From positions 1,344,001-1,408,000 of the forward strand of contig CBDBOV010000006.1 in NCBI GenBank assembly GCA_965208575.1: 64,000 bases of DNA. The letters run 5' to 3'. Source of the stretch: Spirochaetia bacterium. Lineage in GTDB: Bacteria > Spirochaetota > Spirochaetia > SZUA-6 > Bin103. The position numbers and the translations under genes are program-made. Below, piece after piece: positions 16,196 through 58,911 of this stretch. The notes beneath the pieces are model-generated. The model had not been told where the DNA came from, did no database searches, and saw nothing but the letters and a program-made list of their open reading frames with translations. Numbering within the stretch: position 1 is the first letter of the stretch; each line of letters starts with the position of its first letter.

Positions 16196-16255
16196 CCCTC
16201 TCAGGCGGGTCTGACGGTCGATAATCGGAGAATGGGCGGTCAGCGATGAGAAAAC

Positions 16256-16319
16256 GTCGCCTCAGCCGCGCTGTAAGGCCCCTCCACGACACGAGGTGGT
16301 GTCTGGATACCCCCGTGTC
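16256..16319. repeat. ~65-bp direct repeat, copy A (copy B at 18228..18291; both mirrored in element copy 2)
   Basis: gtcgcctcagccgcgctgtaaggcc...acacgaggtggtgtctgga...ccccgtgtc on both sides of the passenger ORF. Confidence 0.9.
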
Positions 16320-16337
16320 TATGCATAACCATGCAAT

Positions 16338-18011: not shown

Positions 18012-18706
18012 CCTCGTCGCCTACCCCGTCCCGGCGGTGGGGAATTGTCATGACCCTGCCCCGGGCAACGCACCTCGGTGCAGTTGTCCGGGGCGCCTCG
18101 CTCCGTGCGCTCCGCAGCAACCTGCGCGCCGCTCGCGGCGTGGGCGGCATCACCCGGCTCGGCAAATGACTTCTGAGCGTCTCTGACGCCCGTATATCCG
18201 TGAGCCAGACGGTCGGCGTCAAGAAATGTCGCCTCAGCCGCGCTGTAAGGCCTCTCCGCGACACGAGGTGGTGTCTGGACATCCCCGTGTCACCAGCACC
18301 GAAGTCGCCTCCAGACCCGTCCGCCCCCTCTTCGGTCAGCGACACGACACGGCACCGACCACCTCCCTGCCGTTGACGCCTCCTCATCCGCGCCGACCAA
18401 CCAGATACGCCCCCGGTCGCGTTGGTGTGCTTGAATCAACCCGGCCGGTCGCCCAGCAGCCTATCCACTTATCCACAATTTATGAGTCTCCCCCCTCGCG
18501 CTCCCCCCTCGTTCTCCGCCTCCCTTTCGGTTAGATTCTTACGTGAGGCACGCTCACCGTAAGGTTAGATTTTTACGTGAGGCAATAGGGCGCGCTGGCA
18601 GCCGTGTCAGCACGGGCGCGGAGGGGGCCGGGCCAACCTCTACAACCGCACTCCCAGCGACTACCGGTAGCATTTTGGCAGACCTGTTGAGATATTGCGG
18701 CCCAAT

Positions 18707-30584: not shown

Positions 30585-31190
30585 AGCGATCCGCGAATCT
30601 CTGCCGATCACCCCTATTGCCTCACGTAAAAATCTAACCTTACGGTGAGCGTGCCTCACGTAAGAATCTAACCGAAAGGGAGGCGGAGAACGAGGGGGGA
30701 GCGCGAGGGGGGAGACTCATAAATTGTGGATAAGTGGATAGGCTGCTGGGCGACCGGCCGGGTTGATTCAAGCACACCAACGCGACCGGGGGCGTATCTG
30801 GTTGGTCGGCGCGGATGAGGAGGCGTCAACGGCAGGGAGGTGGTCGGTGCCGTGTCGTGTCGCTGACCGAAGAGGGGGCGGACGGGTCTGGAGGCGACTT
30901 CGGTGCTGGTGACACGGGGATGTCCAGACACCACCTCGTGTCGCGGAGAGGCCTTACAGCGCGGCTGAGGCGACATTTCTTGACGCCGACCGTCTGGCTC
31001 ACGGATATACGGGCGTCAGAGACGCTCAGAAGTCATTTGCCGAGCCGGGTGATGCCGCCCACGCCGCGAGCGGCGCGCAGGTTGCTGCGGAGCGCACGGA
31101 GCGAGGCGCCCCGGACAACTGCACCGAGGTGCGTTGCCCGGGGCAGGGTCATGACAATTCCCCACCGCCGGGACGGGGTAGGCGACGAGG

Positions 31191-32864
31191 TTGCGACACC
31201 GGAGCCGTCGGGATCGAACGGGGCGGAGGAGATGCTGTACCCCGCTGACGGACGGAGGGCGTAGCCCGACCGGAGTCAGCCGGCGCGGTGCCGTGGAGGC
31301 CACCGTGGACGACGCCGAGATGGCGGACCAGGCAGCCAAGCTGCTCGCTTCCGGGATGAGCGGCTCAGCCTGCGCTCGCGAACTCGGCATCCCGGTGAGC
31401 ACCTTCAACGAGAACCGCCGCGCCGGCGTCATCACAGATCCCACCCGGGAGCCCGCCGCCAGCGCCGAGGTTGCGCCGGCGGCCACCACCACTGATCACC
31501 CGGTCAGCACCGCCGCCGCGGTCAGCGACCCGGCGGTCGCCACTGAGCGCGCCAGCCGCGACGCCCGCGACAAGCACGCGCCCATGGGCCGCGCGGCGCG
31601 CGACGTGGAACGCCGCACGCTCGCCAGAGCCGGCCTGCTGACCGAGGCCACACCAGCGTTCGTCGAGCCCGCCCACGCGGTCGCTGGCGGCGGCGTGCTG
31701 GCCGCACTGGCGATGCTGCTGCGCGAGGGCCTGCTCACCGCCGCCAACCGCCTGTTCCGCCTGCCGGCCGGATTCTACGGCCTGACCACCATCCTCCTGT
31801 TCGTCGCCTGCATGACCCTGGCCCGGGTGCGCAACCCCGAGAGCCTGCGCTACCAGGCACCCGGCGAGTGGGGCGCCATCCTCGGCCTCGACCGCTGTCC
31901 GGAGACCAAGACGCTGCGCCGCAAGATCAGGCTGCTGGCCAGCGCCGAGCACACCGTGCGCGATTGGCAATCGGTACTGGCGCGTACCTGGGCCAGCGAG
32001 CACGACGACGACTGGACGACGCTGGCCGTGGATGGCCACGTGAAGGTGTACACCGGGCGCAACGGGCGGTTGCCGAAACACTTCGTCGCACGCCAGAAGC
32101 TGTGTCTGCCGGCGTCGGTGAGCTACTGGATCAACGCCCTCGGCGGCGCACCGCTGCTGTGCCTGCACAAGGCGCTGGACCCGAAGCCGGTGAATGCGAT
32201 CAAGCACGACGTGGTGCCGCAGTTGCAGCACCTGGGGGTGGTGACCGAAGCGGCCCCCGACCTGACCGGAGCACCGGCCGGTACCCCGCAGCTGACCCTG
32301 GTGTTCGACCGCGAGGGCTGGAGCCCGGACCTGTTCAAGCGCCTGGCCCGGCGTGGCATCGCCTGCATCACCTGGCACAAGAACTTCAACGGCGCGGACT
32401 GGCTGCCGGAAGACTTCCACACCTTCGAGGTACCGATCCATGGTCCCGCCGGCACCAGCACGACTGCGGTTGATCTGGCCGAGCAGCCGATCATGCTGCG
32501 CAACGGGCTGGTGGTGCGCCAGATCCGGCGGCGTCTGGCCAACGGTCGTCAGGTGGCGGTGATCACCACGCACCCGCAGATGCCGTTGGCGCAGGTCGCC
32601 GGCGCCATGTTCTCGCGCTGGTCGCAGGAGAACTTCTTCAAGTACCTGCGCGAGCAGTTCAACCTTGACGCGCTGCCGAGCCATGACCTTGCGCCGCCGG
32701 AGCCCGACGCACGGGTCGTGAACCGGTGCGCCGGGCCCTGGAAAAGAGCATCAGGCGGGTACGCAGCCGGCTGGCAGCGGTCCGCAATCGCCTCGCCGAG
32801 GCACTGCAGGGACGGCACCGGGACTCCGCCACCCGGCTTACGGTCGCGGATAAAGTTGCACTGA
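31191..32864 (+). pseudogene. Putative DDE transposase fragment (copy 2)
   Basis: Same translation as 16338..18011. Confidence 0.75.
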
Positions 32865-33006
32865 ATTGCATGGTTATGCATAGACACGGGGGTATCCAGA
32901 CACCACCTCGTGTCGTGGAGGGGCCTTACAGCGCGGCTGAGGCGACGTTTTCTCATCGCTGACCGCCCATTCTCCGATTATCGACCGTCAGACCCGCCTG
33001 AGAGGG

Positions 33007-34281
33007 TCATTTTGCCGTGCGACCGCTGCCACCACGCTCCTCGCTCGGTGTTTGCACCGTGCTTGGTGCGGCCTTGGCGGTCTTGCTGACGTTCAGCTGC
33101 AGCAGATCCTCGGTCAACCTGGTCAGCTCGCGCTTGAGGGCGACCGGATTCAACGTCGCGTACTGCTGCTTGAGGCGGTTCTTCACCTTCTCGCTCACCG
33201 ACTCGGAGGCCAGCATGCGGTGATACGGCGTCTGCGGGTCGTCATAGATGCGGCGCACCTTGCTGCCGGTGCGGGTTTTCTTCACCAGCTTCACCGAGGG
33301 ATAGAAGAAGTTCACCAGCAGGCACAGCGGGCGGTATATCGCGTTGAGGGCAGCCAGTTCCCGGTCGGTGTCGTAACGCAGGTGGCCGACCGCCCGTCGC
33401 ACCACGTGGCCATTCTTCTGCTCGACGTAGCAGGTGTCGTTCTTGCGATGCGGGCGACCCCGAGTGAACGTGATGCCGTGCGCTTCGCAATAGCGCAGCA
33501 AATGATGATTGATGAACTCGCTGCCGTTGTCGGTGTCGATCCCCCGCATCACGATCGGCAGGCTCTGCCGGGCAGCGTCGATCGCCTCGTGGGTCCAGCG
33601 CTGCGCCTTGTTCTGCACGCCGTACAGGTCGACCCAGCCGGTGTCAACGTCGGTGATGGTGAGCGTGTGGCAGAAGTCGCCTGACGCGTTGCCGCCTTCA
33701 TGGCCCACCAAGTCGATCTCGAAGAAGCCCGGCTCCTGCTCGTCCCAGTCAGCGAAGGTTCGGATCGCGATCTGATCCTTCAGGAGGGTGCCCGGCTTGG
33801 TGTGCGTGCGACCCTTCAGGCGCAGCCGTGCGCGCTCCTGCTGCAGCAGCCGGTCGATGGTCGCGGCGCTGATGGTCTGCAGCTTGCCGCGCACCGCTGC
33901 GGTCAGCTCGATCTCGCCGAACGACTCCAGCGTCGGCAGCATGGTGCGCAGCACGACCACCAGGCGCTTGCCGCACATGCAGTCGAACACGTACCAGATC
34001 AGCTTCAGAGCGACCAGCACCTCCTGGTCGTAGCGCCGCGGTCGCACGCGGCGCTGGGCAGGCCGCGGACGCCCGACCACCAGCTTCACCAGTGTGCCGT
34101 CGACTCGCACCATGCGGGTCCGTCCCCACCAGGTCAACAGATGGATCGCGTACTTGCGCTGGTACCCGGTCGACTCGACGAACTCGTCGAGTATGCGCCC
34201 CTTCTCCTTCTTGCCCGCCCGACGATACCGCTGCGCGTGCTGCTCGGTGAGCTCTCGCCTTGAACTCATCTTCAACCCCAT
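33007..34281 (-). CDS. DDE transposase with rve integrase core (copy 2)
   Basis: Same translation as 14921..16195. Confidence 0.9.
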   Translation of the reverse strand: MGLKMSSRRELTEQHAQRYRRAGKKEKGRILDEFVESTGYQRKYAIHLLTWWGRTRMVRVDGTLVKLVVGRPRPAQRRVRPRRYDQEVLVALKLIWYVFDCMCGKRLVVVLRTMLPTLESFGEIELTAAVRGKLQTISAATIDRLLQQERARLRLKGRTHTKPGTLLKDQIAIRTFADWDEQEPGFFEIDLVGHEGGNASGDFCHTLTITDVDTGWVDLYGVQNKAQRWTHEAIDAARQSLPIVMRGIDTDNGSEFINHHLLRYCEAHGITFTRGRPHRKNDTCYVEQKNGHVVRRAVGHLRYDTDRELAALNAIYRPLCLLVNFFYPSVKLVKKTRTGSKVRRIYDDPQTPYHRMLASESVSEKVKNRLKQQYATLNPVALKRELTRLTEDLLQLNVSKTAKAAPSTVQTPSEERGGSGRTAK

Positions 34282-34449
34282 CTCCTCCGGAACCTCCTCA
34301 CGTCCCTCGGAGAGGCTCCAACCGGACCCGGAAGGTCCAGCCCGTTCGGTTAGATTTTTAGATGAGGCATGCTTTCGCTACGGTTAGATTTTCGATGAGT
34401 CAATGCGTCACCTTGCTGGCTATTCACTTGAGCGATATGCTTGACTCAT

Positions 34450-35696: not shown

Positions 35697-36668
35697 CTAC
35701 TTGTTTGCCCTGGCCTCCAGTCTTTTCCTGGCTTTCTCAGCAGACTTCGCGCCATAGGCACCGGGATGCCCCGCGCCACCCCTGAGCCTGGGATCAAGCA
35801 GGTCCCTCACCGCGTCGCCGAACATGTTGAAACTGTAGACGACAATCGTCAGGCAGAATCCCGGCCAGAGCGCCAGCCAGGGAGCCTCCTCCATGAACTG
35901 GCGCCCTTCCCGGCTGAGCAGACCTCCCCAGCTGGGAACCCCGATGGGCAGACCAAAGCCGAGGAAACTTAAAGAAGCCTCAGACATAATCACCCCCCCG
36001 ATATTGATGCTGAATATAATGATTATGGGAGCCGCAATATTGCGAAGCACATGTCGGACAAATGTTCTCCATTTTGAAGAGCCAATCGACTCCGCTGCCT
36101 GAAAATAGTCGTTCTCTTTTACTGCGATAACGGCGCCTCTTACTGTTCTTGAGCCGCCGATGCCTCCTGTTATCCCCAGGACCACTATTATCTGTGGTAT
36201 ACCCCGCCCCGCTATGGACATTATGGTTAACAACAGGAGCAGTCCCGGGAAAGACATCCAGGCATCGACAAATCTTTGCACAGCCAGGTCCAGTTTACCA
36301 CCCAGGAATCCTGAAGTGCCACCTATCAGGAGAGCGACGACAACATTGAGAGCGGTCGCCGCCAGACCGACAACTATGGAAAGACGAGCCCCTATGATGA
36401 TGCGGCTCAAGAAGTCTCGCCCCAACTGGTCGGTACCCAGCAGATACTGGGCTGATGAGCCTTGCAGCCTGTCTACCAGGTGTTGTTCCCAATATGGATA
36501 AGGAGCCAGAACATCGGCAAAGATAGCCACCAGAATCAATATCAATATGATAATCCCGCAGGCAGTACCCAGTGGCTTCTCCTTGACCAGCCTGACGAAG
36601 AAATCGGCTAAGGCGTGGCGCCTCTTCGTTTCGGCTTCTTCTCGCGGGATATCTCTAAGCTGACTCAT
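35697..36668 (-). CDS. ABC permease, OppC-like
   Basis: Paralog of 5796..6698. Confidence 0.93.
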   Translation of the reverse strand: MSQLRDIPREEAETKRRHALADFFVRLVKEKPLGTACGIIILILILVAIFADVLAPYPYWEQHLVDRLQGSSAQYLLGTDQLGRDFLSRIIIGARLSIVVGLAATALNVVVALLIGGTSGFLGGKLDLAVQRFVDAWMSFPGLLLLLTIMSIAGRGIPQIIVVLGITGGIGGSRTVRGAVIAVKENDYFQAAESIGSSKWRTFVRHVLRNIAAPIIIIFSINIGGVIMSEASLSFLGFGLPIGVPSWGGLLSREGRQFMEEAPWLALWPGFCLTIVVYSFNMFGDAVRDLLDPRLRGGAGHPGAYGAKSAEKARKRLEARANK

Positions 36669-36681
36669 CCTTTCGCCTCCA

Positions 36682-37677
36682 CTACCTGTATCGTAGCCTG
36701 GGGTCTAAATAAGGATAAATCAGGTCGATAAATAGATTGTTCGCCATAACCACGGTGGCGAAAAACAGGTTTATTCCGGAGACCACCGGGTAGTCTCTTT
36801 CAGCGAGTGAATCCAGCATGACACGACCCATCCCCGGCAGGTTAAATATGTTCTCCATGATAACGGAGCCACCAATCAGCAGAGGCAACTGCAGGCCTAC
36901 CAGGGTAACTACCGGGATGAGGGCATTCTTGATGGCGTGTCTGATAACAACTACCCTCTCCTTGAGACCCTTGGCCCAGGCAGTCCTAATGTAGTCCTGC
37001 CTGAGCACCTCCAGCATCATGGTGCGCGTCATCCGCATTGAGGATGCAGAAGCGGCCGTCCCCAGAATCAGGCTGGGAATGATCAACACCGCCAAATTCC
37101 CCAGCGGGTCTTCGGTGAAAGGAAACCACCTCATCGGTGGCGACCAGCCCCACCAGATTACCGGGAAGATCATGACCATGGTTCCCAGCCAGAAGTTGGG
37201 AGTTGCCATGCCGATGACGGCCGCGGTGCGCCCCACGTAGTCGGCGGCCGTATCCTGGCGAATCGCCGAGTAGATGCCGACTGGCAGCCCTATTACTAGC
37301 CCGATTACGATTGACAACAAACCAAGCTCGATGGTTACCGGCAGTGCATTTAATATCCTATCCTCCACCGTCCCACCGCCCATCATTGATTCGCCAAGGG
37401 TTCCCTGGAGGAGACCTTTAAAGTGGGACTCACCGGTAACCCAGTCAGGGGTCGGCAACACTCCTAGCCAGCGTCCATACTGTACGTGCACAGGTACGTC
37501 TAAGCCCAGTATATGCTCAAGAGCTTCACGGTCTACGCCACCCAGCCATTCCATCCTTCTGACCATTACGTCTACTATATCGCCCGGGATGAAGCGGACC
37601 GAAAGAAAGACCAGGATGGTCAATATAGACAGGGTGGGGATTATCAGCAATAACCGCCTGATGATATAGGCTCTCAT
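36682..37677 (-). CDS. ABC permease, OppB-like
   Basis: Paralog of 4820..5779. Confidence 0.93.
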   Translation of the reverse strand: MRAYIIRRLLLIIPTLSILTILVFLSVRFIPGDIVDVMVRRMEWLGGVDREALEHILGLDVPVHVQYGRWLGVLPTPDWVTGESHFKGLLQGTLGESMMGGGTVEDRILNALPVTIELGLLSIVIGLVIGLPVGIYSAIRQDTAADYVGRTAAVIGMATPNFWLGTMVMIFPVIWWGWSPPMRWFPFTEDPLGNLAVLIIPSLILGTAASASSMRMTRTMMLEVLRQDYIRTAWAKGLKERVVVIRHAIKNALIPVVTLVGLQLPLLIGGSVIMENIFNLPGMGRVMLDSLAERDYPVVSGINLFFATVVMANNLFIDLIYPYLDPRLRYR

Positions 37678-37757
37678 GTCACACTCCTCATCATTCGTCG
37701 GACTAGAACTGAATCTCTAGCGTCCATCATATTTCCCGGCAATTTCTTACAATGTCC

Positions 37758-37841
37758 CCCGTCATTGCGAGCCCCGATTTATCGGGGTTTGGCAATCTCG
37801 TTGCCCTCTTTCCCCGTCATTGCGGTGAAAACCGCAATCCA
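37758..37841. repeat. Two REP-like palindromes (gtcattgcg...gcaatc)
   Basis: gtcattgcgagccccgatttatcggggtttggcaatc and gtcattgcggtgaaaaccgcaatc. Confidence 0.65.
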
Positions 37842-37945: not shown

Positions 37946-38857
37946 GCCGGGTAGAATCGCGGCGCGCGCAAGCCTTAGGCAGAGATTCATAACCACCTCG
38001 CTCTTTCGATTGCGAGGCAGGATCCTAGTTCCACCATAGTCCACGTTTCCGCGAAGCCCCCCTCTCATCCCGGACGGTCGAATTTCTCGAGTCCGGTTGG
38101 CGGCCATGCCCACGTTCCCCGATGGACCTTCCCGACGGGGCCGAAGCTCAAGCGCTGGCACGCATACGCCCCTAACCCCGCCGGTTATACCACCGGCTCG
38201 ATGCCGGCTGCGACCTATCACGTTACCCGGGTACAGCGCCCCGGCGTGTGCCCGTCAGGCATCCGACATGCGCCGAGAGCCCCTTCGCCTGCGCCGGTCG
38301 TTACCCGTTGCAGCGTGACGTCGAGCGTCACGTCAGAGGGCATTACCCCACCTTCATAGCTCATACTGGCTCAGGCGCCAGACCAAATCCCTCCTGACGA
38401 CTTCAGCTTTATGCCTTATACGACAGGTCCCTGCAGGTTGCTGCCAGCCCCTGCTGGGAGATGGCCCTTCCCGACTTTGTCGCTGCATTCCTTGCACAGT
38501 CGCTTGGTCCCCTACCCCGTAGTGTCTCTTCGCTGCATGTACCCGTTTCTTCACGAAGAGCGTCGGCCTCGCAACAGGGCTTACGTGCTCGGCACACTAA
38601 AAAGTCCCGGACAGCATCGTTCGCCGGGGGTCATATTTCGGGGCTGCAGACATTCCGTTATGTTCAGGCTCCTGTGCTCGCTCGACCCTCTGGATGCCCC
38701 CACCTTGCAGTCCTGTGCCTGACAAAGCGGCAGGGCCTTATACACCACGCAGCTATCGTGCGGTTACCCAACACAAACTGTGGCATCGCTACGTACCCGA
38801 ACCGGGTAATTGATACGGCCGGTCCTTCCCGGCTGGAATGCAGTCTTGTCGGCTGCT
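37946..38857 (-). ncRNA. ORF-less group II intron-like RNA
   Basis: Domain V-like hairpin aaccggactcgagaaattcgaccgtccgggat (38067-38098) followed by gagagggggg and a domain VI-like end ...gcgattctacccggc; no RT ORF. 5' boundary approximate. Confidence 0.7.
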
Positions 38858-38865
38858 GAAACCCA

Positions 38866-40668
38866 CTAATAACCCATTGCTGCCTTCAGCTCACCATCAA
38901 TCCAGAGGCGGGCTAAGACTGACTGGGTTTCACCATCTCCTACTTTCACTTCGCCGTTATAACCTTTGACCCACGGCTGCGTTGCCTGGAACTGTGGGGT
39001 TTCAGGACCCCATACCCTAAATTGCTTTTCTATGACGTACATATTTGCCTCTTTCAGGAACCTATCCTTCTCCTCGATGGAGGTGGCAGCGGAGGCGGCA
39101 TCAATCAGAGCGTCATATTCGGGGTCTTTCACGCCACTGCGGCTCCACTGGTATTCCGAATAAAACTGGTTCAGAATACGGTAGAGAGCATACCTGAAGG
39201 CCCCTTCCCCCCAAATAATTCTGTAGGTATCCTGTTCTGGGTTGGCCACCTGGGATCCCTCAGTACCGAAAACATCTATCTCGACCTCCACACCAATCTC
39301 ACGCCAGTATCCCGCGGCCAGTTCTGCATAGCTCACATCGTACCGTTCAAAGAAGGCCAGGCGGGTCTTGTATCTAATGCCGTCCGCGCCGCGGGTAAGC
39401 CCAGCCTCATCAAGCAACGCTTCTGCCCCTGCCGGGTCATACCTATAGGTTTTCTTGACCTCTTCGGGCCACTCCTCAAATGGCGTGCCAATCCCCGGCA
39501 CATCATTGCCTATATGTCCCTGCGGAGTCGCACCGCCATAACCCTTATAGTAGGTAGCGACAATGGTCTCGAGGTCCAGTGCCATCTGCATGGCCTGGCG
39601 CACCCGGATGTCATTCCAGGGCGGTCTGTCCAGACCGACGAGATAGAAAACGTTGTCGGACCGAAAGTTATACGTATACAGCTCGACTTCGGGGTCGGTC
39701 CGCTCGAGTCTCTCTACTTCGTCGATAGACCTTAATTGAGAGCTGCCGACAGTCCCCAGCATATCAATCTTACCCGTCCGCAGAGCCGCCAGACGAGTTG
39801 CCCCTTCTGGCATAAACAACATTATTATCTTGTCAACATAGGGCAGGCGGTTCTCCGGGTATTTTTCGTCGAAGCCCCAGTAGTCGGGATTCTTGGTCCA
39901 GGTCCTAGAGCTGCCTTCGACCACCTCCGTCAGCTCATAGGGTCCGGTGCCGACCGTGTTCCGCCAATCCTTATAGTCGCCGTGTTGCTCGATGACCTCC
40001 GGAGGGTATATAAAAGCCATGTGCCAGCCGAGAAGTTCTGGCAGGGCGCGAAGGTTTGGCTCCTTTAGCTTGAAAACGACTGTCCAATCGTCGGTGGCCG
40101 TTACCGACTCGTAATTCGCTGGCTTCATGGCAGTTGCCATTGGGCTAGGTCCGGCTTCACTGAACTTGCCCAGACCCAACATACGCTGCCAGTGATGTTC
40201 TACATCTTTGGCAGTCAGCTCCCGACCGTTCATCGGTGCCTTGTCGTGCCAGTAAACGCCCTTGCGGATGTTGAAGATAATGGTCGTATCGTCGGGCGTT
40301 TCCCAGCCTTCCGCCAGTGCCCCTTTCCAGGCCCATAGAGGTGTGTCTGCTAAGAGCCGCCAGTCCCATACGTCCCTATCTATTCCCCAGTCCACGATGC
40401 CGAGCATCTCATTAACCAAAGCGATGGATTGTGCCGCCCAGCCAGTAATGTACCAGGCATCACTATGCTCAGCCCAACTGGCCTCGCCATAGGTCAATGT
40501 CCCGCCGTACTCTGGCGCGGTCACCGCCTTGCCGGTGGTGGGGTCGGTCACATACTGCTTGTCGGCAGCGGCGCCCGGCTCCTCTTCTGCGCCAGCGGCC
40601 CAGAGGCCGGTTGCGGTCACGGCGAGGACCATCGCAATCGCGAAGGTCCTTGTGAAGAATATCTTCAT
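38866..40668 (-). CDS. ABC family 5 solute-binding protein
   Basis: Paralog of 2860..4626. Confidence 0.92.
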   Translation of the reverse strand: MKIFFTRTFAIAMVLAVTATGLWAAGAEEEPGAAADKQYVTDPTTGKAVTAPEYGGTLTYGEASWAEHSDAWYITGWAAQSIALVNEMLGIVDWGIDRDVWDWRLLADTPLWAWKGALAEGWETPDDTTIIFNIRKGVYWHDKAPMNGRELTAKDVEHHWQRMLGLGKFSEAGPSPMATAMKPANYESVTATDDWTVVFKLKEPNLRALPELLGWHMAFIYPPEVIEQHGDYKDWRNTVGTGPYELTEVVEGSSRTWTKNPDYWGFDEKYPENRLPYVDKIIMLFMPEGATRLAALRTGKIDMLGTVGSSQLRSIDEVERLERTDPEVELYTYNFRSDNVFYLVGLDRPPWNDIRVRQAMQMALDLETIVATYYKGYGGATPQGHIGNDVPGIGTPFEEWPEEVKKTYRYDPAGAEALLDEAGLTRGADGIRYKTRLAFFERYDVSYAELAAGYWREIGVEVEIDVFGTEGSQVANPEQDTYRIIWGEGAFRYALYRILNQFYSEYQWSRSGVKDPEYDALIDAASAATSIEEKDRFLKEANMYVIEKQFRVWGPETPQFQATQPWVKGYNGEVKVGDGETQSVLARLWIDGELKAAMGY

Positions 40669-40854
40669 GGTTTCTTCCTTAAACGCTATTTCGAGAGTAT
40701 TGCGGAGCGGATTGCCGCTCCCTGGCCACGCGCAACGCAGGCGGCCAGTCTGAGTCAAATACACTGAAAGCGCGCGGCGTGTGACTCATCCGGGGTTCAC
40801 CCGGGCTCACGCCGCGCGCGCGTGCGGCTCTTTGAGTATCATTTTGCACCTCCT

Positions 40855-41410
40855 GTGCGCCGGAAAAAAAACCGGCAGGGTTGTTGTGAATGAAAGAGTC
40901 ATACGTCGAAGGGCTAGCGACCCACGGCGGCCCCGAGTCATGCGCCGCCGCCCGCGAGGGCGGGGGTGAAGCGTTGACAGGGGACAGGGGTACGTGCGGG
41001 CCGGGTATCGAGCCGCGAAAGGAATTACTTTGGGGTGCCGACGCCGTAGGAGGATGCGGAAGGCCACACCCGGGGCGCCGATATCGCGAGGCGCTACGGG
41101 ACCCTGCGCGGTCACAGACCCCGAGTACGTACGGAAACACCTTGCGCGGGAGCCGGGAGATCCCCGCTTCGCCTGTGGCGGATGGCGCCGCAGGCCGTGT
41201 CGGGAAGTCCAAGGACGTACGCCGACGATGAACGGAGCTGGGAAGTCGGACAGGCCCACAGTACGGGAGCGATTGCAGGCCAAGCTGGGGCAGGTGAAGA
41301 CCGAGCTTCGGCGGCGCCTGCACGATCCGGTCCCGGAGGTGGGAAGCTGGTTGCGCTCGGTTGTGGGTGGGCACGCGCGCTACTACGGGGTGCCCACGAA
41401 CTCCCGCCGC
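40855..41410 (+). mobile_element. Internally deleted group II intron (5' RNA domains plus maturase fragment)
   Basis: Starts GTGCG; domain I-like ccccgagtcatgcg...gaagcgttgacagggg; then 'LQAKLGQVKTELRRRLHDPVPEVGSWLRSVVGGHARYYGVPTN' (domain X-like); no RT core or D5. Confidence 0.8.
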
Positions 41411-42119: not shown

Positions 42120-43373
42120 CAGGGCAATCGACTGAGTGGATTTACTCAGGTCGTGAGCAGCGAGTAGAGAAAGTCCTCATTCCAGGCAGCGATGTGACGA
42201 CTGGCGCGCATGCTGTGTTTGCCCTTGCCGCGCCGCAGGAGATTGCTGGCCATGTGCTTGATGGTGGCGAAGTTCGCCGGCGCGTGCCCGCTCCGTATGC
42301 GGCACTCGTCATCGCGGAACACCATGTCCATCACCCAGTGCAGCCCATTCTCGACGCCCCAGTGGCTGCGTATCGCGTGGCCGATCTGCTCGGCATCCGC
42401 CGGCAACGAGCTGATGTAGTAGCGCGTCTCGGTTTCGACCTTGTCCTCGACCAATAGTTCACGCCGGCTCTCCACCTTCACGATGCTGCGCAGCCCCGGC
42501 CAGCGGTGGTCCTGCTGCAGCCACGCGATGTCCTCGGTCGCTACCACCCGCCGCGTCTCCAGACGTCCGTGGCCCTTGTCACTACTCTCATGTACCGTGA
42601 CTTGGTGCCCGGCGAAGCCATCCTGTCGTTCGTCGAAGAACAACGCCACATCCTTATGCAGCGTCCCCTGATTTCCTTTCAGACCCAATACATAGTCTGC
42701 TTTCTGCTCGATGATCCGGGCACCGATCTCGCGCTGGCAGCCCATCGCGTCGATGGTCACCACCGCGCCGTGCAACTCCAGCAACCGCAACAGCTCCGGG
42801 ATCGCCGGGATCTCGTTCGACTTGTCCGCCACCTTGCACTGGCCCAGCACCAGCCGCTGCTGGCTACTCCACGCCGAGATCATATGGATCGGTCCCTGCT
42901 CGGCAGCGCGATCAAGCGAGCGCCGCAGCGTCTTGCCATCTACCGCCACCACTCCACGCACCGCCGCCGTAAACCGCTCCACCCAGGCGATGAAACAACT
43001 CTGGAACTGCTGCGCGTCCAGCCGCGCGAACACGTTCCCCAGTTGGTCATGCGATGGGACCCCATGGGCGAATGGCAAGAAGCGGCGCAGAAACTTCAGC
43101 TTCTGCTGGCCATACAGCGCCACCTCGACCCAGCTATCGGCACCGCCGAGCACTGCGCACAGGCACAGCAACAGGATCTCCGGCAGCGGATAGAGCACCT
43201 TCGCCTGCTGGCGCGGGTCGTCGAGAGCGTCGAAACTGCCTAAGAATTCGACATCACCACCACTGTCATCGTTCATCAGAATGCCCCTCCCAGAGCTATT
43301 TCCTAGCTCCTTCAGTACATACTGATCACCGCCTGTCTGTCACCCTACCCAAAATATTCGGTCGATTGCCCTG
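42120..43373 (-). mobile_element. ISAs1-family insertion sequence
   Basis: Terminal IR cagggcaatcgac; 9-bp TSD gggcggtgg at 42111-42119 and 43374-43382. Confidence 0.93.
42146..43276 (-). CDS. ISAs1 transposase
   Basis: 'DPRQ', 'AVDGKTLR', 'KSNEI', 'IDAMGCQ', 'LKGNQ', 'HWGVEN'. Confidence 0.95.
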   Translation of the reverse strand: MNDDSGGDVEFLGSFDALDDPRQQAKVLYPLPEILLLCLCAVLGGADSWVEVALYGQQKLKFLRRFLPFAHGVPSHDQLGNVFARLDAQQFQSCFIAWVERFTAAVRGVVAVDGKTLRRSLDRAAEQGPIHMISAWSSQQRLVLGQCKVADKSNEIPAIPELLRLLELHGAVVTIDAMGCQREIGARIIEQKADYVLGLKGNQGTLHKDVALFFDERQDGFAGHQVTVHESSDKGHGRLETRRVVATEDIAWLQQDHRWPGLRSIVKVESRRELLVEDKVETETRYYISSLPADAEQIGHAIRSHWGVENGLHWVMDMVFRDDECRIRSGHAPANFATIKHMASNLLRRGKGKHSMRASRHIAAWNEDFLYSLLTT

Positions 43374-50199: not shown

Positions 50200-50417
50200 G
50201 CTACAAGTGTGCCACGCCCGCACCACCACGGCAACCGCCCGCCGGATTATCTAAAAGTAAACTGATACACTACCTGGCAAAGGTAACGGTAGCCACCAGC
50301 GCGAACGCCAGTGTAGCGTATGAAGCAGCGAGTGGACGAGTGGCAGGCGCAGTGCGAACCGGTCCTTGCAAGAATCGCTGGTCGCGGATAGATAGGTACG
50401 TGGCGTCCCCGTGTCGG

Positions 50418-51380
50418 TCAACTACGCGACGAGCGCGCTCGCGCCGCTTTGCGCAGCGCCTTGCCGCGGTGCGCACCCATGCGCCCCACGCCGCCGCGCA
50501 AGCGCGGGTCGAGCAGGTCGCGCACCGCGTCGCCGAACATGTTGAAGCTGTACACGACGATGGTCAGGAAGATGCCGGGCCACATCGCCAGCCACGGCGC
50601 CTGCTGCATGTAATTGCGGCCCTCGCGGCTCAGGAGGCCGCCCCAACTGGGCACGCTCAGCGGCAACCCAAAGCCCAGAAAGCTCAGCGAAGCCTCGGTG
50701 ATGATGACCGCGCCGACGGTGATGCTGAAGATGATGATGATGGGCGCCAGCACGTTCGGCAGCACGTGGCGCAGCACCGTATGCCAGGGCGGGCTGCCGA
50801 CCGCCTGAGCAGCCTGAAAGTAGGCGTTCTCCTTAATGCCGATCACCGCACCCCGGATCACGCGCGAGCTGCCGATGCCGTAGGTCAGGCCCAGCACGAT
50901 GATGATCTGCGGCGCACCGGTACCCAGGATCGACATGATGGTCATGAGCAGGAGCAGTCCCGGAAAGGCCATCCAGGCATCGACGAATCTCTGCGTCACC
51001 ATGTCGAGCCGGCCACCGACGAACCCCGACAGGCCGCCGACGGCGGTGGCCACCAGTACCGCCACCGCCGTCGCCGCGAAGCCGACCAACAGCGACAGGC
51101 GCGCGCCGTAGATGTTGCGGCTCAAGAAGTCGCGCCCCGTATGATCGGTGCCCAGCAGATGCTCGGCCGAGGAGCCCTGCAGCCTCCGCGTGACGTCCTG
51201 GCGCTGCTCGGGGTCCGGTGCCAGCACGTCGGCGAAGACGCTCACCAGCACGAAAACCACGATGATGACGGCGCCGAGCAGGCCCAACGGCTTCTCCCGG
51301 ACCAGCCGGTAGAAGAAGTCCGCAAGTGGGCCGCGCGGGCGTCGGACATCGGCGCCGCCGGGATCGGCGATGGTGCTCAC
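50418..51380 (-). CDS. ABC permease, OppC-like
   Basis: 'LLGTDHTGRD', 'EASLSFLG', 'GDAVRDLLDPR'. Confidence 0.93.
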   Translation of the reverse strand: MSTIADPGGADVRRPRGPLADFFYRLVREKPLGLLGAVIIVVFVLVSVFADVLAPDPEQRQDVTRRLQGSSAEHLLGTDHTGRDFLSRNIYGARLSLLVGFAATAVAVLVATAVGGLSGFVGGRLDMVTQRFVDAWMAFPGLLLLMTIMSILGTGAPQIIIVLGLTYGIGSSRVIRGAVIGIKENAYFQAAQAVGSPPWHTVLRHVLPNVLAPIIIIFSITVGAVIITEASLSFLGFGLPLSVPSWGGLLSREGRNYMQQAPWLAMWPGIFLTIVVYSFNMFGDAVRDLLDPRLRGGVGRMGAHRGKALRKAARARSSRS

Positions 51381-52336
51381 TAGTAGCGAATCCTCGGGTC
51401 GAGGTAGGCGTACAGCAGGTCGATGAGCAGGTTGTTGAACAGAATGAAGGTGGCAAAGAACAGGTTGATGCCCGAGACCATCGGATAGTCACGCTTCGCC
51501 AGCGACCCAACGAGCAGCGACCCCAGGCCGGGCAGGTTGAACAGCGTCTCGATGATGACCGAGCCGCCGACCAGGATCGGCAGTTGCAGCCCGATGAGGG
51601 TGAGCACAGGGATGAGGGCGTTCTTGATGGCGTGGCGGACAACGACCGACCGCTCGCGTAGGCCCTTGGCCCACGCCGTGCGCACGTAGTCCTGCCGCAG
51701 CACCTCCAGCATCATCGTGCGCGTCATCCGCATGGTGGCGGCAGATAGGCCGGTGCCCAGGATGAGGCCGGGGATGAGGAACATGCCGATGTGGGCCACC
51801 GGATCCTCGCTGAAGTCAAACAGTCGCAGCGGCGGCGTCCAGCCCCACCAGATGCCGGGAAAGATGAGGACCATGAGGGCCAGCCAAAAGTTGGGCGTGG
51901 CCAACCCAAAGATGGCGACGCTGCGGGCCGCGTAATCGCCGAGGGTGTCCTGGCGCACGGCCGAGTAGATGCCCACCGGCAGCGCGATCAACAGGCCAAT
52001 GATCAGCGCGGCGCCCCCCAGCTCCAGGGTGACGGGCACTCGGGCGAGAATCTTCCCCTCCACGGGTCTGTTGCCCCGTTGCAGCGACTGACCGAGGGTG
52101 CCTTCCAACAGAATCCCTCGCACCCACCGCACGTAAGCGATGTGCGCGGGGACATCGAGACCCATGATGGCGCGCAACCGATCCTTCTCCTCGGTGCTGA
52201 TGGCGTAAAATGTGTCGGCCGTTATGATGTCGACGATGTCGCCTGGAATCGCACGCACCATAAAGAACACCAGCATGCTCAGGATGAACAGCGTGGGGAT
52301 GAACAGCAGCAGCCGGCGGATGACGTAGGTTCGCAT
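51380..52336 (-). CDS. ABC permease, OppB-like
   Basis: 'YVIRRLL', 'QDYVRTAWAKGL'. Confidence 0.93.
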   Translation of the reverse strand: MRTYVIRRLLLFIPTLFILSMLVFFMVRAIPGDIVDIITADTFYAISTEEKDRLRAIMGLDVPAHIAYVRWVRGILLEGTLGQSLQRGNRPVEGKILARVPVTLELGGAALIIGLLIALPVGIYSAVRQDTLGDYAARSVAIFGLATPNFWLALMVLIFPGIWWGWTPPLRLFDFSEDPVAHIGMFLIPGLILGTGLSAATMRMTRTMMLEVLRQDYVRTAWAKGLRERSVVVRHAIKNALIPVLTLIGLQLPILVGGSVIIETLFNLPGLGSLLVGSLAKRDYPMVSGINLFFATFILFNNLLIDLLYAYLDPRIRY

Positions 52337-52395
52337 GGAGAAAGGACGCCCGGGGCCGCACAGGCCGACCCCAGGCGCAAAAGGCCAAAGACGAG

Positions 52396-54195
52396 CTAGT
52401 TCAACTCGGACTTGAGCTGACTATCGATCCAAATGCGAGCGTAGGGCAGGGAATGGCCCATGTCGCCCACCTGCATCTCGCCGTTAAAGCCGGCGATCCA
52501 CGGCTGCGCAACGGTGAAACCGGGAGCCCGCGGACCCCAGATGTAGACGTGCTGCTCGATCGCATACATGTCGAGCGCCTTCGCCAGCCGTCGGTACTCG
52601 TCCTCGTCTTCACTGGCGGCCTCCAACTCCTCCCATCTGGCGTCGAACACCGGATCGCAGTAGGCACCCGACACGCCGATTTGCCCGTTGGAGGCATAAG
52701 CGCCGAGACTTGAGGCGAGAGCGTTGTAGTCGGCACCGTTGCTCCACCACATTGTCAAACCGTCCCAGTCTCGCGAACTCATCGTTCCGAAGAACACAGC
52801 ATCCTCGAGCGCATTGAGCTCGACCTCCACCCCGATCTCCTTCCAGTAACCGACCTCCAGCTCGTGGTAGCCGATGTCGGATCGACCGACGGGTCGGATC
52901 ATCGAGGTCCGGAAGCGGACACCGTCCGCGCCGCGCGGGTATCCGGCCTCGTCGAGCAGTCGCTCGGCACCTTCAGGGTCGTAGGAGTAGAACTTCTTGA
53001 GCTCCTCGGGCCAGGTATCGAAGGCGTTGTGATAACCGACCCACGTTGGCCCGATAGGCCCCATCGGCTGCCACTCTCCGAAACCCGAGAAGTAGTTGTC
53101 GTTGAGGGTCTCCAGGTCGATCGCCATCTGCAACGCGTGGCGTACCCGCACGTCGCTGAGCGGCCCCCCGGCACAGATGTTCATGGGCGACGATACCTCG
53201 GATCGGAACGCGATCGGGAAGAACTGCATGTCCGGGTTGGTTTTCTGGAGTTCCAGCACGCTGCTGATCGACGTGATCTGCGCCACACCATTCCACCCGC
53301 TCAAATCGACCTGAGCCGACCGCAGTGCCGCAAGCCTGGTCGCCTGGTCGCCCATCACCAGCATCACGAGCCTATCGACATAGGGCAGGCGGTTCCCCGG
53401 GAACTTCTCGTCGTCCTTCCAGTAGTTGGGGTTCCTGTCAAACGTGACTGAGATGCCGCTGACGAACTCGTCCATGATAAAGGGCCCGGTGCCGATGACA
53501 TTGTTGGCGTCGTCGAGCGTGTCGAAGGTCTCGGGTGGGCGTGCAAAGATGTGGGGGTCGTCGAAGAGCAGCCGATGCGTGTCCCGAAACGGCCGCGACA
53601 GTTTGATCATCAACGTCAGCTCGTCGGTGGCCGCTACCGACTCTATGGGGAGCAGCACGGTTCCATGGCCAACCGGCGAGCGCTCCTGGCCGGCAAACCT
53701 GCCGATGCTTAACATGCGCTCGTAGTTCGCGGCCATGTCGTCGGCGGTCAGCTGCCGACCGTTAACCGGCGGCTTGTCGTGGAAGAAGACGTTGTCACGG
53801 ATCTTGTAGATGTAGGTCAACGGATCCGGGTTCTCCCAGCTCTCGGCCAGGTGCCCTGTCAGTATGCTCAAGGGGAAGTAGGTCGTAAACGGGTAGACAC
53901 TCCGGTCCGCCGCCCAGTCCGCGCGACCCAACCTGTCCAGCGCTGCTGCCGTCGCCAACCCGGCGCTGTGGGTGAGCCACGTGTCGCCGTGATCGGGAAG
54001 GCCGGCGAGGACTACAGTGGTGAGTGTCCCGCCGTATTCCGGCTTGAGCACCTGCTTGCCGGTGGACGGATCGGTCACGTACTCCTTCTCGGCGGCCATC
54101 GCCGTGTCGTCGTCTTCGCCGGCGGGGCTGGCAAAGGTAACGGTAGCCACCAGCGCGAACGCCAGTGCTACCGTTAAGAGCAAAAGAGCTTTCAT
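52396..54195 (-). CDS. ABC family 5 solute-binding protein
   Basis: Signal peptide, 'PEYGGTL', 'GTGPF', 'RVRHALQMAID'; RBS upstream. Confidence 0.92.
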   Translation of the reverse strand: MKALLLLTVALAFALVATVTFASPAGEDDDTAMAAEKEYVTDPSTGKQVLKPEYGGTLTTVVLAGLPDHGDTWLTHSAGLATAAALDRLGRADWAADRSVYPFTTYFPLSILTGHLAESWENPDPLTYIYKIRDNVFFHDKPPVNGRQLTADDMAANYERMLSIGRFAGQERSPVGHGTVLLPIESVAATDELTLMIKLSRPFRDTHRLLFDDPHIFARPPETFDTLDDANNVIGTGPFIMDEFVSGISVTFDRNPNYWKDDEKFPGNRLPYVDRLVMLVMGDQATRLAALRSAQVDLSGWNGVAQITSISSVLELQKTNPDMQFFPIAFRSEVSSPMNICAGGPLSDVRVRHALQMAIDLETLNDNYFSGFGEWQPMGPIGPTWVGYHNAFDTWPEELKKFYSYDPEGAERLLDEAGYPRGADGVRFRTSMIRPVGRSDIGYHELEVGYWKEIGVEVELNALEDAVFFGTMSSRDWDGLTMWWSNGADYNALASSLGAYASNGQIGVSGAYCDPVFDARWEELEAASEDEDEYRRLAKALDMYAIEQHVYIWGPRAPGFTVAQPWIAGFNGEMQVGDMGHSLPYARIWIDSQLKSELN

Positions 54196-56776: not shown

Positions 56777-56933
56777 GGTTATACGATACCTGACAACAAC
56801 ACCTCTCGTCGTCCCCGGTTGGAAGAAGCTGACGCACCGCCTTGGCCCGGGCGATCAAGGGGCCGGCATCGCTTGTGACACGAGCCGGATAGATCGCGCC
56901 GGTTCGCCGCACGTGGTTGGCGCCCCGTGTCGG

Positions 56934-57896
56934 TCAGCTGCTCGACGATCGCGCCCGGACCGCACCCCTGAGCGCCTTGCCGCCATGGGCGCCCATGCGG
57001 CCTGCCCCGCCGCGCAGGCGCGGGTCGAGCAGGTCGCGGACGGCGTCGCCGAACATGTTGAAGCTGTACACAACGACGGTCAGGAAGATGCCCGGCCACA
57101 TGGCCAGCCACGGCGCCTGCTGCATGTAATTGCGCCCCTCGCGGCTCAGCAGGCCACCCCAGCTCGGCACGTTCAGCGGCAGCCCGAAGCCCAGAAAGCT
57201 CAAGCTGGCCTCGGTGATGATCACCGCGCCGATGGTGATGCTGAAGATGATGATGATCGGCGCCAGCACGTTCGGCAGCACGTGGCGCAGCACCGTGCGC
57301 CGGGACGGGCTGCCGACCGCCTGCGCCGCCTCGAAGTAGGCGTTCTCCTTGACGGCGATCACCGCGCCCCGGATCACGCGCGAGCTGCCGACGCCGTAGC
57401 TCAGGCCCAGCACGACGATGACCTGCAGGGCACCGGTACCCAGGATCGACATGATGGTCATGAGCAGCAGCAATCCCGGGAAGGCCATCCAGGCATCGAC
57501 GAATCTCTGCGTCAGCAGGTCGAGCCGGCCCCCCACGAACCCCGACAGCCCGCCGACGACGGTGGCCACCAGCACCGCCACCGTGGTGGCCGCGAAGCCG
57601 ACCAGCAGCGACAGGCGCGCGCCATAGATGTTGCGGCTCAGGAAGTCGCGACCGGTGTGATCGGTGCCCAGCAGATGCGCGGCCGAGGAGCCCTGCAGCC
57701 TCCGGGTCACGTCCTGGCGCAGGTCGGGGTCGGGCGCCACCACGTCGGCGAACACGCTCACCAGCACGAACAGCACGATGATCACGGCGCCGAGCAGGCC
57801 CAACGGCTTCTCCCGGACCAGCCGGTAGAAGAAGTCCGCAAGTGGGCCGCGCGGGCGCCGGGCGGCGGCGCCGCCGCGATCGGCGATGTCGCTCAC
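56934..57896 (-). CDS. ABC permease, OppC-like
   Basis: Close paralog of 50418..51380. Confidence 0.93.
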   Translation of the reverse strand: MSDIADRGGAAARRPRGPLADFFYRLVREKPLGLLGAVIIVLFVLVSVFADVVAPDPDLRQDVTRRLQGSSAAHLLGTDHTGRDFLSRNIYGARLSLLVGFAATTVAVLVATVVGGLSGFVGGRLDLLTQRFVDAWMAFPGLLLLMTIMSILGTGALQVIVVLGLSYGVGSSRVIRGAVIAVKENAYFEAAQAVGSPSRRTVLRHVLPNVLAPIIIIFSITIGAVIITEASLSFLGFGLPLNVPSWGGLLSREGRNYMQQAPWLAMWPGIFLTVVVYSFNMFGDAVRDLLDPRLRGGAGRMGAHGGKALRGAVRARSSSS

Positions 57897-58852
57897 TGGT
57901 AGCGGATCCTCGGGTCAAGGTAGGCGTACAGCAGGTCGATGAGCAGGTTGGCGAACAGGATGAAGGTGGCAAAGAACAGGTTGATACCCGACACCATCGG
58001 ATAGTCACGGACCGACAGCGCCGAGATCAGCAGAGATCCCAGGCCGGGCAGGTTGAACAGCGTCTCGATGATCACCGAGCCACCCACCAGGATCGGCAGC
58101 TGCAGCCCGATGAGGGTGACCACCGGGATGAGCGCGTTCTTCATCGCGTGGCGGACGACCACCAGCCGCTCGCGCAGGCCCTTGGCCCAGGCCGTGCGTA
58201 CGTAGTCCTGCCGCAGCACTTCCAGCATCATGGTGCGCGTCATCCGCATGGTGGCGGCAGAGAGGCCGGTGCCCAGGATGAGGCCGGGGATGAGGAACAT
58301 GCCGATGTGGGCCACCGGATCCTCGCTGAAGTCAAACAGTCGCAGCGGCGGCGTCCAGCCCCACCAGATGCCGGGAAAGATGAGGACCATGAGGGCCAGC
58401 CAAAAGTTGGGCGTGGCCAACCCGAAGATGGCGACGCTGCGGCCCGCATAATCGCCGAGGGTGTCCTGGCGCACCGCCGAGTAGATGCCCACCGGCAGCG
58501 CGATCACCAGGCCGATGATCAGCGCCGCCACCCCCAGCTCCAGGGTGACGGGCAATCGGTCGAGGATCCTGATCTCCACTGGCTTGTGACCGCGGAGCAG
58601 GGACTGACCGAGGGTGCCTTCCAACACAATCCCTCGCATCCACTGTACGTAAGCGATGTGTGCTGGGACGTTCAGCCCCAGCATCTCGCTAAATCGCTCC
58701 AAGTCGTCATCGGTCGCGCCATACTGAGGGTCGCTCAGCAAGATGTCGACAAAATCACCGGGGAGCAGGCGTACCGAAAGGAACACCAGCATGGTCACGA
58801 TCAACAGCGTGGGGATGAACAGCAGCAGTCGCCGGACGAAGTAGGTAGACAC
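57893..58852 (-). CDS. ABC permease, OppB-like
   Basis: Close paralog of 51380..52336. Confidence 0.92.
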   Translation of the reverse strand: MSTYFVRRLLLFIPTLLIVTMLVFLSVRLLPGDFVDILLSDPQYGATDDDLERFSEMLGLNVPAHIAYVQWMRGIVLEGTLGQSLLRGHKPVEIRILDRLPVTLELGVAALIIGLVIALPVGIYSAVRQDTLGDYAGRSVAIFGLATPNFWLALMVLIFPGIWWGWTPPLRLFDFSEDPVAHIGMFLIPGLILGTGLSAATMRMTRTMMLEVLRQDYVRTAWAKGLRERLVVVRHAMKNALIPVVTLIGLQLPILVGGSVIIETLFNLPGLGSLLISALSVRDYPMVSGINLFFATFILFANLLIDLLYAYLDPRIRYQ

Positions 58853-58911
58853 GGAAAATGCGGGCCTGGGACGGCGCGTGCAGCCCAGACCCTGCCAGTT
58901 GCCTGGATTGG

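Follow-up and report, generated by a model that had tools for sequence, protein, structure and literature searches.

A probable non-autonomous, ORF-less group II intron with an AAC domain 5 triad in an ABC operon of a Spirochaetia bacterium

Layout of the locus and ends of the element

The DNA analyzed here, called the window below, is a stretch of 64,000 nt from a Spirochaetia bacterium (assembly GCA_965208575.1, contig CBDBOV010000006.1, positions 1,344,001 to 1,408,000). On its minus strand, a gene for a family-5 solute-binding protein (SBP) and two ABC permease genes form an operon, and an element of 913 nt is placed in sense between the SBP gene and the permease genes. Coordinates are those of the window.

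38866-40764, minus strand: upstream host gene, family-5 solute-binding protein (SBP_bac_5; Pfam E = 7.9e-66)
38868-38866, minus strand: stop codon TAG of the SBP gene (ORF 38866-40764)
38858..37946, minus strand: ORF-less group II intron, whole element, 913 nt (nhmmer profile match; ends from filled versus empty paralogous sites)
38858-38853, minus strand: intron 5′ end, CAGCAG here (compared with genus copies, GAGCAG after one extra U, and with the family, GUGCAG)
37948-37946, minus strand: last three intron bases, GGC (filled versus empty sites)
37945-37940, minus strand: 3′ exon, first bases CACCCC, which form the downstream half of the target hairpin that the element splits (filled versus empty sites)
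36682-37677, minus strand: downstream ABC permease 1, host operon gene
35697-36668, minus strand: downstream ABC permease 2, host operon gene

A preliminary description of this DNA had set the element at 37946-38857, starting some 9 nt after the SBP stop. Its strand and coordinates hold except at the 5′ boundary, which is 38858, so that the first base lies 7 nt past the TAG. Likewise, the 3′ end was correctly read as GC, whereas the true 5′ end lies two bases farther out and reads CAGCAGCC. The placement on the sense strand ahead of the permeases agrees with the gene coordinates and strands, and the spacer of about 190 bp noted in a paralogous operon spans 4627-4820 (∼194 nt) and is devoid of the target hairpin described below. 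The window also holds a second, fragmentary intron (RF02005 match at 40895-41121 on the plus strand, 172 bits), divergent and upstream of the SBP gene.

The preliminary description had noted no RT ORF in the element, and we found none either: a tblastn search with the genome's own group II RT returned nothing below E = 1.7, and none of the 7 internal ORFs of 55-132 aa has a Pfam match at E ≤ 0.1.

Group II introns usually begin with GUGYG and end with AY, and their domain 5 (D5), a hairpin of about 34 nt whose two helices are set apart by a 2-nt bulge in the 3′ strand, carries the triad AGC (or CGC). Their domain 6 has a bulged A 7-8 nt from the 3′ splice site, and the 5′ terminal G matters for splicing. 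The element departs from these termini, with CAGCA...GC in the window, GAGCA...GC in the genus copies and GUGCA...AC in the family. Its 5′ terminus reads CAGCAGCC, versus (U)GAGCAGCC in every other copy, and the terminal G is replaced by C in the window copy alone, being retained in the other copies and in the wider family. The 3′ end is GC rather than AY; family members mostly end in GAC, and RT-bearing relatives in GAC or GGC.

Homology, structure and exon recognition

To place the element, we used an nhmmer profile of 11 related elements from other phyla, which excluded the source genome, its relatives and rows with unalignable 5′ parts. This profile matches the window at 38856-37947 (envelope 38857-37946; E = 2.4e-98), and the match covers positions 3-880 of its 880. 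A second model, the D5-D6 covariance model R1, was made of 15 rows from other phyla, excluding the window and rows L010, L108-L110, L140 and L132. In the 64-kb window it gives a single match, at 38101-37944 on the minus strand, covering the full model with 120 bits and E = 1.6e-23. The Rfam comparison suggested in the preliminary description was less productive. Within the element there is no gathering-level match; at E ≤ 10 we obtained a partial RF02005 match (38514-38645, minus strand; 15.5 bits, E = 0.087, compared to a gathering score of 49) and two chance matches, with nothing for RF00029 (Intron_gpII) or RF02003. A scan of the 5′ 270 nt returned a chance snoRNA match and nothing else. 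RF00029 likewise fails to detect D5-D6 in the RT-bearing 2.0-kb introns of the source genome. Searching the whole genome with a loose D5 regular expression gave 188 matches, mostly spurious, and pointed to C6:67619.

By blastn, the element has no similarity to the 2.0-kb RT intron of the source genome, nor to the RF02003-type intron with an RT that a sister genome carries; its relatedness to both types is visible solely in structure and models. Among relatives of the element, RF02003 (group-II-D1D4-4) scores above threshold in the 5′ parts of 14 of the 19 loci scanned, the window-type copy not being one of them.

The 3′ part of the element folds into the following domains.

38099-38067, minus strand: D5; triad AAC, 38098-38096; bulge CC, 38077-38076; loop of 5 nt, GAAAU, 38086-38082 (alignment A1, RNAalifold, CM R1)
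38066-38063, minus strand: J5/6 linker, GAGA (D5-D6 alignment)
38062-37949, minus strand: enlarged domain 6 (D6), 114 nt (alignment A1, RNAalifold)

Alignment A1 comprises 22 family rows across D5 and D6, and its fold was assessed by RNAalifold, by pair counts and by comparison with 500 shuffles. RNAalifold recovers a D5 of two helices, a 2-nt bulge and a 5-nt loop, followed by a long D6. Compensatory changes are seen at 13 of the 37 pairs, and 97.5% of cells are paired, compared to 35-44% when the partner is slid. None of the 500 shuffles matched the observed value on four measures, and 2 did so on the fifth. The two D5 helices are 96-98% paired and include 4 pairs with compensatory change; helices 3-7, in D6, are 94-100% paired, and helices 3, 4 and 5 each contain compensatory pairs. 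The hairpin, purine linker and D6-like end of the preliminary description are thus borne out, and the covariation that it proposed to look for in homologs is present. For the whole element, the minimum free energy is no better than that of shuffles (z = –0.77).

Several details of this region are those of a group II intron. In the basal stem of D6, an A at 37952, seventh from the end, is bulged like a branch point and unpaired between conserved pairs (columns 172/174). The inner arm of D6 contains CUAUGG (38039-38034) and CCUAAG (37979-37974), which we take to read like the classical 11-nt tetraloop-receptor motif, plus a GAAA-capped hairpin. The 5-nt D5 loop is found throughout A1 and in the RT-bearing relatives. 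In the part of Nagy et al. 2013 (PMC3753933) drawn on here, a 5-nt D5 loop is an idiosyncrasy of classes IIE and IIF, and a long structured D6 is a tendency of IIF. The element resembles IIE/IIF introns (PMC3753933) in both respects, in having EBS1 and EBS2 in domain 1 (D1), and in the En-less RT of its relatives. It differs in being ORF-less and in the size of its ribozyme part (913 nt versus the 450-700 nt quoted there); for D1, the comparison covers EBS1 and EBS2. The element belongs to a lineage related to RF02003 introns, with published IIE/IIF traits.

Exon recognition was analyzed in 21 non-redundant family rows, from which six with unalignable 5′ parts were removed to leave 15. The interacting segments in the window are listed below.

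38874-38869, minus strand: IBS2, GGTTAT, the final two sense codons of the SBP gene (pairs with EBS2)
38864-38859, minus strand: IBS1, GGGTTT, the upstream half of the small hairpin that is targeted (pairs with EBS1)
38634-38629, minus strand: EBS2, AUGACC (alignment columns 643-646)
38582-38577, minus strand: EBS1, AAGCCC (alignment columns 723-729)

In 12 of the 15 rows, including the window, there is a 6-nt complement to the element's own 5′ exon in the fixed columns 723-729, and the EBS1 bases vary between rows while complementarity to each row's own exon persists. Columns 643-646 pair with exon positions from about –9 to –16 in 9 of 14 rows, again including the window. Most other SBP paralogs have GGUCAU at the IBS2 position, which is a perfect match to EBS2. 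We also considered GACCCC (38631-38626) as EBS1 and rejected it; it overlaps AUGACC (38634-38629), which is EBS2.

The 3′ ends of many SBP paralogs read ...ATGGGTYAYTAG. A small hairpin, GGGG-UUUCA-CCCC, comes next, and at occupied sites the element splits the loop of this hairpin. With the insertion point marked by a slash, the target reads GGTCATTAGGGGTTT/CACCCC, and joined exons would read GGGUUU/CACCCC. The site specificity of the element can be attributed to EBS1 and EBS2 matching, as in group II introns. Since this target is strand-specific, both the sense orientation and the position of the element are forced. Group IIC introns insert after a terminator hairpin and use a short EBS1 only. 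The element is like these terminator-targeting introns in that its insertion is tied to an intergenic DNA/RNA hairpin, but it enters the loop of a 4-bp hairpin and relies on 6 + 6 nt of EBS/IBS pairing.

Copies, RT sources and the AAC core

We surveyed SBP 3′ ends in the source genome with one regular expression. Of 22 such ends, 4 are occupied by the element, 9 carry an empty hairpin and 9 have no site. Partial copies occupy the same junction in other SBP-permease operons: one at C6:955127-955760 has an internal deletion but keeps both ends and is 95-98% identical, one at C3:285367-285111 consists of the 5′ part alone, and a mini-copy at C5:331417-331620 retains both ends. The SBP and permease flanks of the best in-genome copy are 78-84% identical to those of the window. 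Some sites that match EBS1 and EBS2 fully are still empty, for example the SBP ends at C4:561766 and C5:115536. We then scanned 40 related genomes and obtained matches in 8. In three genomes of the same genus (G001, G003 and G006), full copies of 927 nt, with 97% identity, lie right after the SBP stop, in flanks that are 70-72% (SBP) and 82-84% (permease) identical to the window's.

Overall, element copies are 95-98% identical, compared to 70-84% for their flanks. Because identity falls exactly at the intron ends, these data favor insertion over both inheritance and gene conversion. The presence of similar copies in divergent flanks, in the same hairpin and beside empty sites and deletion derivatives, makes this a homing pattern. 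Gene conversion between paralogs could in principle homogenize copies too, although the drop in identity at the ends speaks otherwise. Mobilization in trans, already proposed in the preliminary description, is the most plausible history.

Which RT could have served the element? The source genome contains five 2.0-kb introns, 99.85-99.95% identical to one another, with an intact frame of 474 codons (442 aa from the ATG used) whose product matches TIGR04416 (NCBIfam group II RT/maturase) with 328.8 bits. We found no cognate-lineage RT in this genome (95% complete), the best match being an RT of the RF02005 type at 35% identity. The sister genomes G001 (5 copies) and G005 (1 copy), on the other hand, have RT-bearing introns that match RF02003 strongly and share the D5-D6 build (56-67 bits with R1). 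The lineage thus has an RT-encoding form nearby, in sister genomes, which the source genome seems to lack. There is precedent for such an arrangement, as PMC4424553 and PMC12584367, in the parts used here, describe ORF-less bacterial introns served in trans by the RT of a related intron.

To gauge the wider distribution, we searched a collection of species-representative genomes for a 21-base motif from the D6 arm, which yielded 47 loci. The labels of the motif-bearing MAGs comprise Rhodobacterales, other Alphaproteobacteria, Gammaproteobacteria, Deltaproteobacteria/Desulfobacteraceae, Spirochaetia and Acidobacteriota. One match in Streptomyces, without the remainder of the element, looks like chance. 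When the DNA around the motif was examined for each of 53 rows, an RT lay upstream of D5 in 2 and downstream in 13, with none in 38; some of these loci overlap, and several rows have <1.3 kb of upstream sequence. Family elements are ∼878-915 nt long, head-to-tail pairs are present, and insertion contexts in other phyla are unrelated, with some members inside other introns. Within the phylum, R1 matches at E ≤ 1e-5 occur in 4 of 150 other genomes sampled, a patchy distribution. Collectively, these data show that the family is a widespread, mostly protein-less intron lineage, often multi-copy, in at least six bacterial groups. For scale, the survey in PMC8919778, in the portion drawn on here, counted 888 ORF-less introns among 13,041, using RF00029 above 24 bits.

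The D5 triad of the window departs from AGC/CGC, reading AAC opposite G and A, and this triad and the CC bulge are located where the preliminary description had placed them. Six of the 22 family rows combine AAC with a bulge of CC or CU. One of these is the window, another belongs to a genome of the same order, and the other four are deltaproteobacterial MAG rows. The count derives from the 17 rows, out of 22, that could be parsed (6 AAC), the remaining rows being AGC by alignment. The base opposite the middle position of the triad is A or U in AGC rows and G in AAC rows, a reciprocal change from G·A to A·G. In all other features, AGC and AAC rows are alike. We compared these rows with 63 RT-bearing introns of the RF02005 type, retrieved with the RT of the source genome. 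AGC is present in 55 of the 63, in 53 cases opposite A; the other 8 read AAC, with G opposite in 4, A opposite in 3 and, in the source genome's own, G plus a further change. All five 2.0-kb introns of the source genome read AAC and, as they are 99.85-99.95% identical, an intron with this triad has evidently moved recently.

We conclude that the AAC/CC core is mostly a lineage trait, the conserved state of a sub-lineage, and not decay of the window copy. The preliminary description had reasoned that homologs with a canonical D5 and an RT would mark this as a decayed copy. Homologs with AGC, and homologs with an RT, do exist, but AAC/CC is conserved and does not reflect decay. In the literature covered here, we found neither an AAC triad nor this ORF-less family described.

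Origin and present state of the window copy

We regard it as very likely that the window element is a non-autonomous, ORF-less group II intron, and as probable that this copy is stranded in the operon transcript. Homology, structure, EBS/IBS pairing and the pattern of presence and absence suggest a cycle in which the element would be transcribed within the SBP-permease mRNA and, in active members, fold into a D1-D6 ribozyme. EBS2 (AUGACC) and EBS1 (AAGCCC) would recognize the sequence ...GGUYAU-UAG-GGGUUU, after which the intron begins. Active members would splice out and, by reverse splicing, enter this same sequence where other SBP genes carry it, the entry site being the loop of the small hairpin just past the stop codon, and an RT supplied in trans by an RT-encoding intron would copy the element into DNA. 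Splicing, reverse splicing and an RT acting in trans would explain why the element is found at one site in several paralogous operons and in sister species.

The copy in the window has its full length, and its D5, D6, EBS1 and EBS2 are intact. Because its 5′ G is replaced and a cognate RT was not found in the genome, it is most likely a stranded passenger that splices poorly or not at all; the same lines of evidence suggest that it is presently inactive, i.e. probably crippled as well as non-autonomous. If unspliced, this copy would lengthen the spacer between the SBP and permease genes by 913 structured bases.

Parts of the stretch are contained in 24 RNA-library runs, and we examined contigs from 4 runs in 4 studies. 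Two of the four are labelled sponge metagenome, and the contigs span near-identical copies of the whole intron with the flank of a paralog. The exon-exon joint 38859/37945 was not seen in the contigs of the 4 runs, where a ligated product would look the same as an empty paralog and DNA carry-over is possible. Other joints include 38074>38803 and 38104>38884, which look like deletion-variant copies, and 37785>38949, whose shorter side is 25 letters only and which has no known content between. Contig depth in these libraries cannot rank parts of the element.

Might the window copy nevertheless still work, with RF02005-type RTs of the genome assisting its splicing, so that the mRNA is restored and the element stays mobile? 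We consider this unlikely. The integrity of D5, D6, the branch A, EBS1 and EBS2 would allow it, as would the matching IBS1 and IBS2, the five intact RT genes of the source genome and the use of AAC by the host's own RT introns. Against it stand the C at the first position, where the other copies and the family have G, the mere 35% identity of the available RTs to the cognate type, and contigs of 4 RNA-library runs that give no evidence of ligated exons.

The preliminary description had favored other interpretations, one being a domesticated RNA. Such an RNA would be cis-regulatory, an unspliced or conditionally spliced structured spacer kept for setting the ratio of SBP to permease expression. 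Sense orientation between SBP and permease genes at every occupied site, 97% identity across sister species and RNA-library contigs spanning the whole element are the points in its favor. Orientation and position, however, are dictated by the strand-specific EBS/IBS target, 9 of the 13 hairpin-bearing paralogous sites are empty, and the copies decay through differing internal deletions. The family, moreover, occurs in unrelated contexts in other phyla, with some members inside other introns. With copies decaying, matching sites empty and the orientation forced by the target, we find no evidence that supports tuning of SBP versus permease expression, and we judge domestication highly improbable.

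The other interpretation was a distinct class of intron-derived ribozyme. In such a ribozyme, or in a repurposed, HYER-like RNA, AAC/CC would reflect changed chemistry, e.g. protein-free hydrolytic cleavage of DNA or RNA directed by the EBS sites. It is true that 6 of the 22 family rows, drawn from different phyla, keep AAC with CC or CU. Of the 53 motif rows, moreover, 38 lack an RT in the DNA examined and only 2 have one upstream of D5, and ORF-less IIC introns are reported as hydrolytic endonucleases (PMC11754743, as far as the part used here describes them). Nevertheless, we give this idea hardly any credence. The AAC triad recurs in 8 of 63 RT-bearing introns, among them the five near-identical and recently mobile copies of the source genome, and family rows with AGC are alike in every other feature; with its bulged A, its EBS1 and EBS2 and its insertions of the homing type, the element is like ordinary group II introns. 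HYERs (PMC11754743, same part) share with the element an ORF-less, group II-derived RNA in multiple copies, but they are of class IIC, 0.4-0.6 kb in length, with recognition of ∼7 bp. The element is 913 nt long, has EBS2 as well as EBS1, and combines a large D1 with a decorated D6. It does not have the IIC architecture (small D1, no EBS2, 0.4-0.6 kb) and is to that extent unlike the IIC-type HYERs, and none of our results points to cleavage activity.

The stranded, non-autonomous intron that we favor has closer counterparts in the ORF-less introns of Trichodesmium dnaN and of Thermosynechococcus (PMC12584367, PMC4424553 and PMC2882425, each as represented by the parts drawn on here). Like the element, these are full ribozymes without an IEP, in several near-identical copies, in genomes that also carry RT-encoding group II introns. 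Here, by comparison, an RT of the same lineage is absent, the intron targets a hairpin in the intergenic DNA past a stop codon rather than a housekeeping ORF, and the D5 triad is AAC. ORF-less bacterial group II introns are already known; the present case is of interest mainly for a D5 variant that runs through the lineage and for a family that is largely ORF-less, less so for this copy.

Taking the family as a whole, we tentatively propose a broader reading. The family may constitute a widespread, almost wholly ORF-less lineage of IIE/IIF-like introns that act as SINE-like parasites of RT-encoding introns, with some members inside the 5′ region of the latter, and that standard D5-based surveys have missed. 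Part of this lineage, together with some RT-bearing relatives, might be catalytically competent with AAC, the usual G·A or G·U being flipped to A·G.

The locus itself is best seen as a stranded selfish intron, not as a new regulator, and the wider value of the finding lies in the family and in the D5 variant. It provides a clear case in which EBS1 and EBS2 have redirected an intron to a hairpin close to the stop codon in a large family of paralogous genes, and it shows that the window's member of a conserved ORF-less family is invisible to the Rfam Intron_gpII model. AAC variants of D5 with a reciprocal change on the opposite strand, found in evidently mobile RT-bearing copies, offer a test of how strict the AGC requirement is in the active site of group II introns and of the spliceosome. 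If AAC is indeed competent, it would amount to a naturally occurring exception to the AGC/CGC rule, which group II introns and U6 snRNA have in common.

Repeats and intron remnants around the paralogous operons

The genome carries dozens of paralogous SBP/permease operons, and further blocks of this kind lie within the window, with 77-84% identity between paralogs. Short repeats recur in the spacers between SBP and permease genes, and a fragmentary intron lies divergent from the SBP gene of the studied operon, 91 nt upstream of its start.

Window features:
50401-53537 versus 56918-60047; 5049-5773 versus 37412-36688: further paralogous SBP/permease blocks
37750-37830 (-): short repeat, about 50-55 nt, around ...GTCATTGCG...CGCAATGAC...
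40855-41121, on to about 42100 (+): fragmentary RT-less group II intron, RF02005 type (172 bits)
42146-43276 (-): DDE_Tnp_1 transposase gene
14795-18590 and 30612-34407: the two arms of a 3,796-bp inverted repeat (100% identity)

The GTCATTGCG/CGCAATGAC repeat is found, at 81-91% identity, in many paralogous SBP-permease spacers (for example C6:938667, 945391 and 906689; C4:521882 and 555014; C6 and C4 denote sequences of the genome). At many sites, a terminator-like hairpin, GGGAGCTGG...CCAGCTCCC, lies downstream of the target hairpin, the small hairpin just after the SBP stop codon.

The RF02005-type fragment starts with GUGCG at 40855. The same divergent layout is present at C6:951-958 kb, a paralogous locus that retains an RT remnant of 284 codons. 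By coordinates, no fewer than five further SBP operons also have it next to them (C4:509113, 524746, 563845 and 536323; C6:936360). Because the blocks are about 78% identical, the fragment seems to have been brought along by operon duplication. The DDE_Tnp_1 gene occupies the position at which the RT of the upstream fragment would be expected.

Two ORFs lie in each arm of the inverted repeat, one for an rve integrase (424 aa) and one for a Transposase_29 protein (557 aa). About 12 kb is enclosed between the arms, and the end of one arm falls ∼1.3 kb downstream of the studied operon's last permease gene.

A second ORF-less family member in the genome

G000:C6:67121-67771 (+): second ORF-less family member, 5'-truncated (nhmmer and R1)

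This member aligns to nhmmer profile positions 269-880 (E=2.8e-104) and scores 140 bits with R1, the D5-D6 covariance model. Its D5 reads AGC. What looks like an IS remnant directly adjoins it.

Family members within and next to other introns

Certain ORF-less family members, in MAGs of other phyla, lie within the first 28-52 nt or so of another group II intron.

L119, L129, L136 (about 1150-1220); L126, L158; L142: nested family members
L116 1975-2104; L121 about 1990-2092: D6-arm fragments of the ORF-less family

In the nested members, the 5' exon resembles UUGCGCCAGGCAAAGCUUGGUGAGGGGG|, and RF02005 picks up again about 39 nt past the 3' end, followed by an RT. Such loci are twintron-like nests. 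Of 31 insertion rows that were parsed, 7 have a motif like UUGCGCCAGGCAAAGCUUGGUGAGGGGG upstream; one of those seven (L118) is probably a mis-parse. The D6-arm fragments lie directly 3' of the end of an unrelated RT-bearing intron, which suggests that introns insert into each other's D6.
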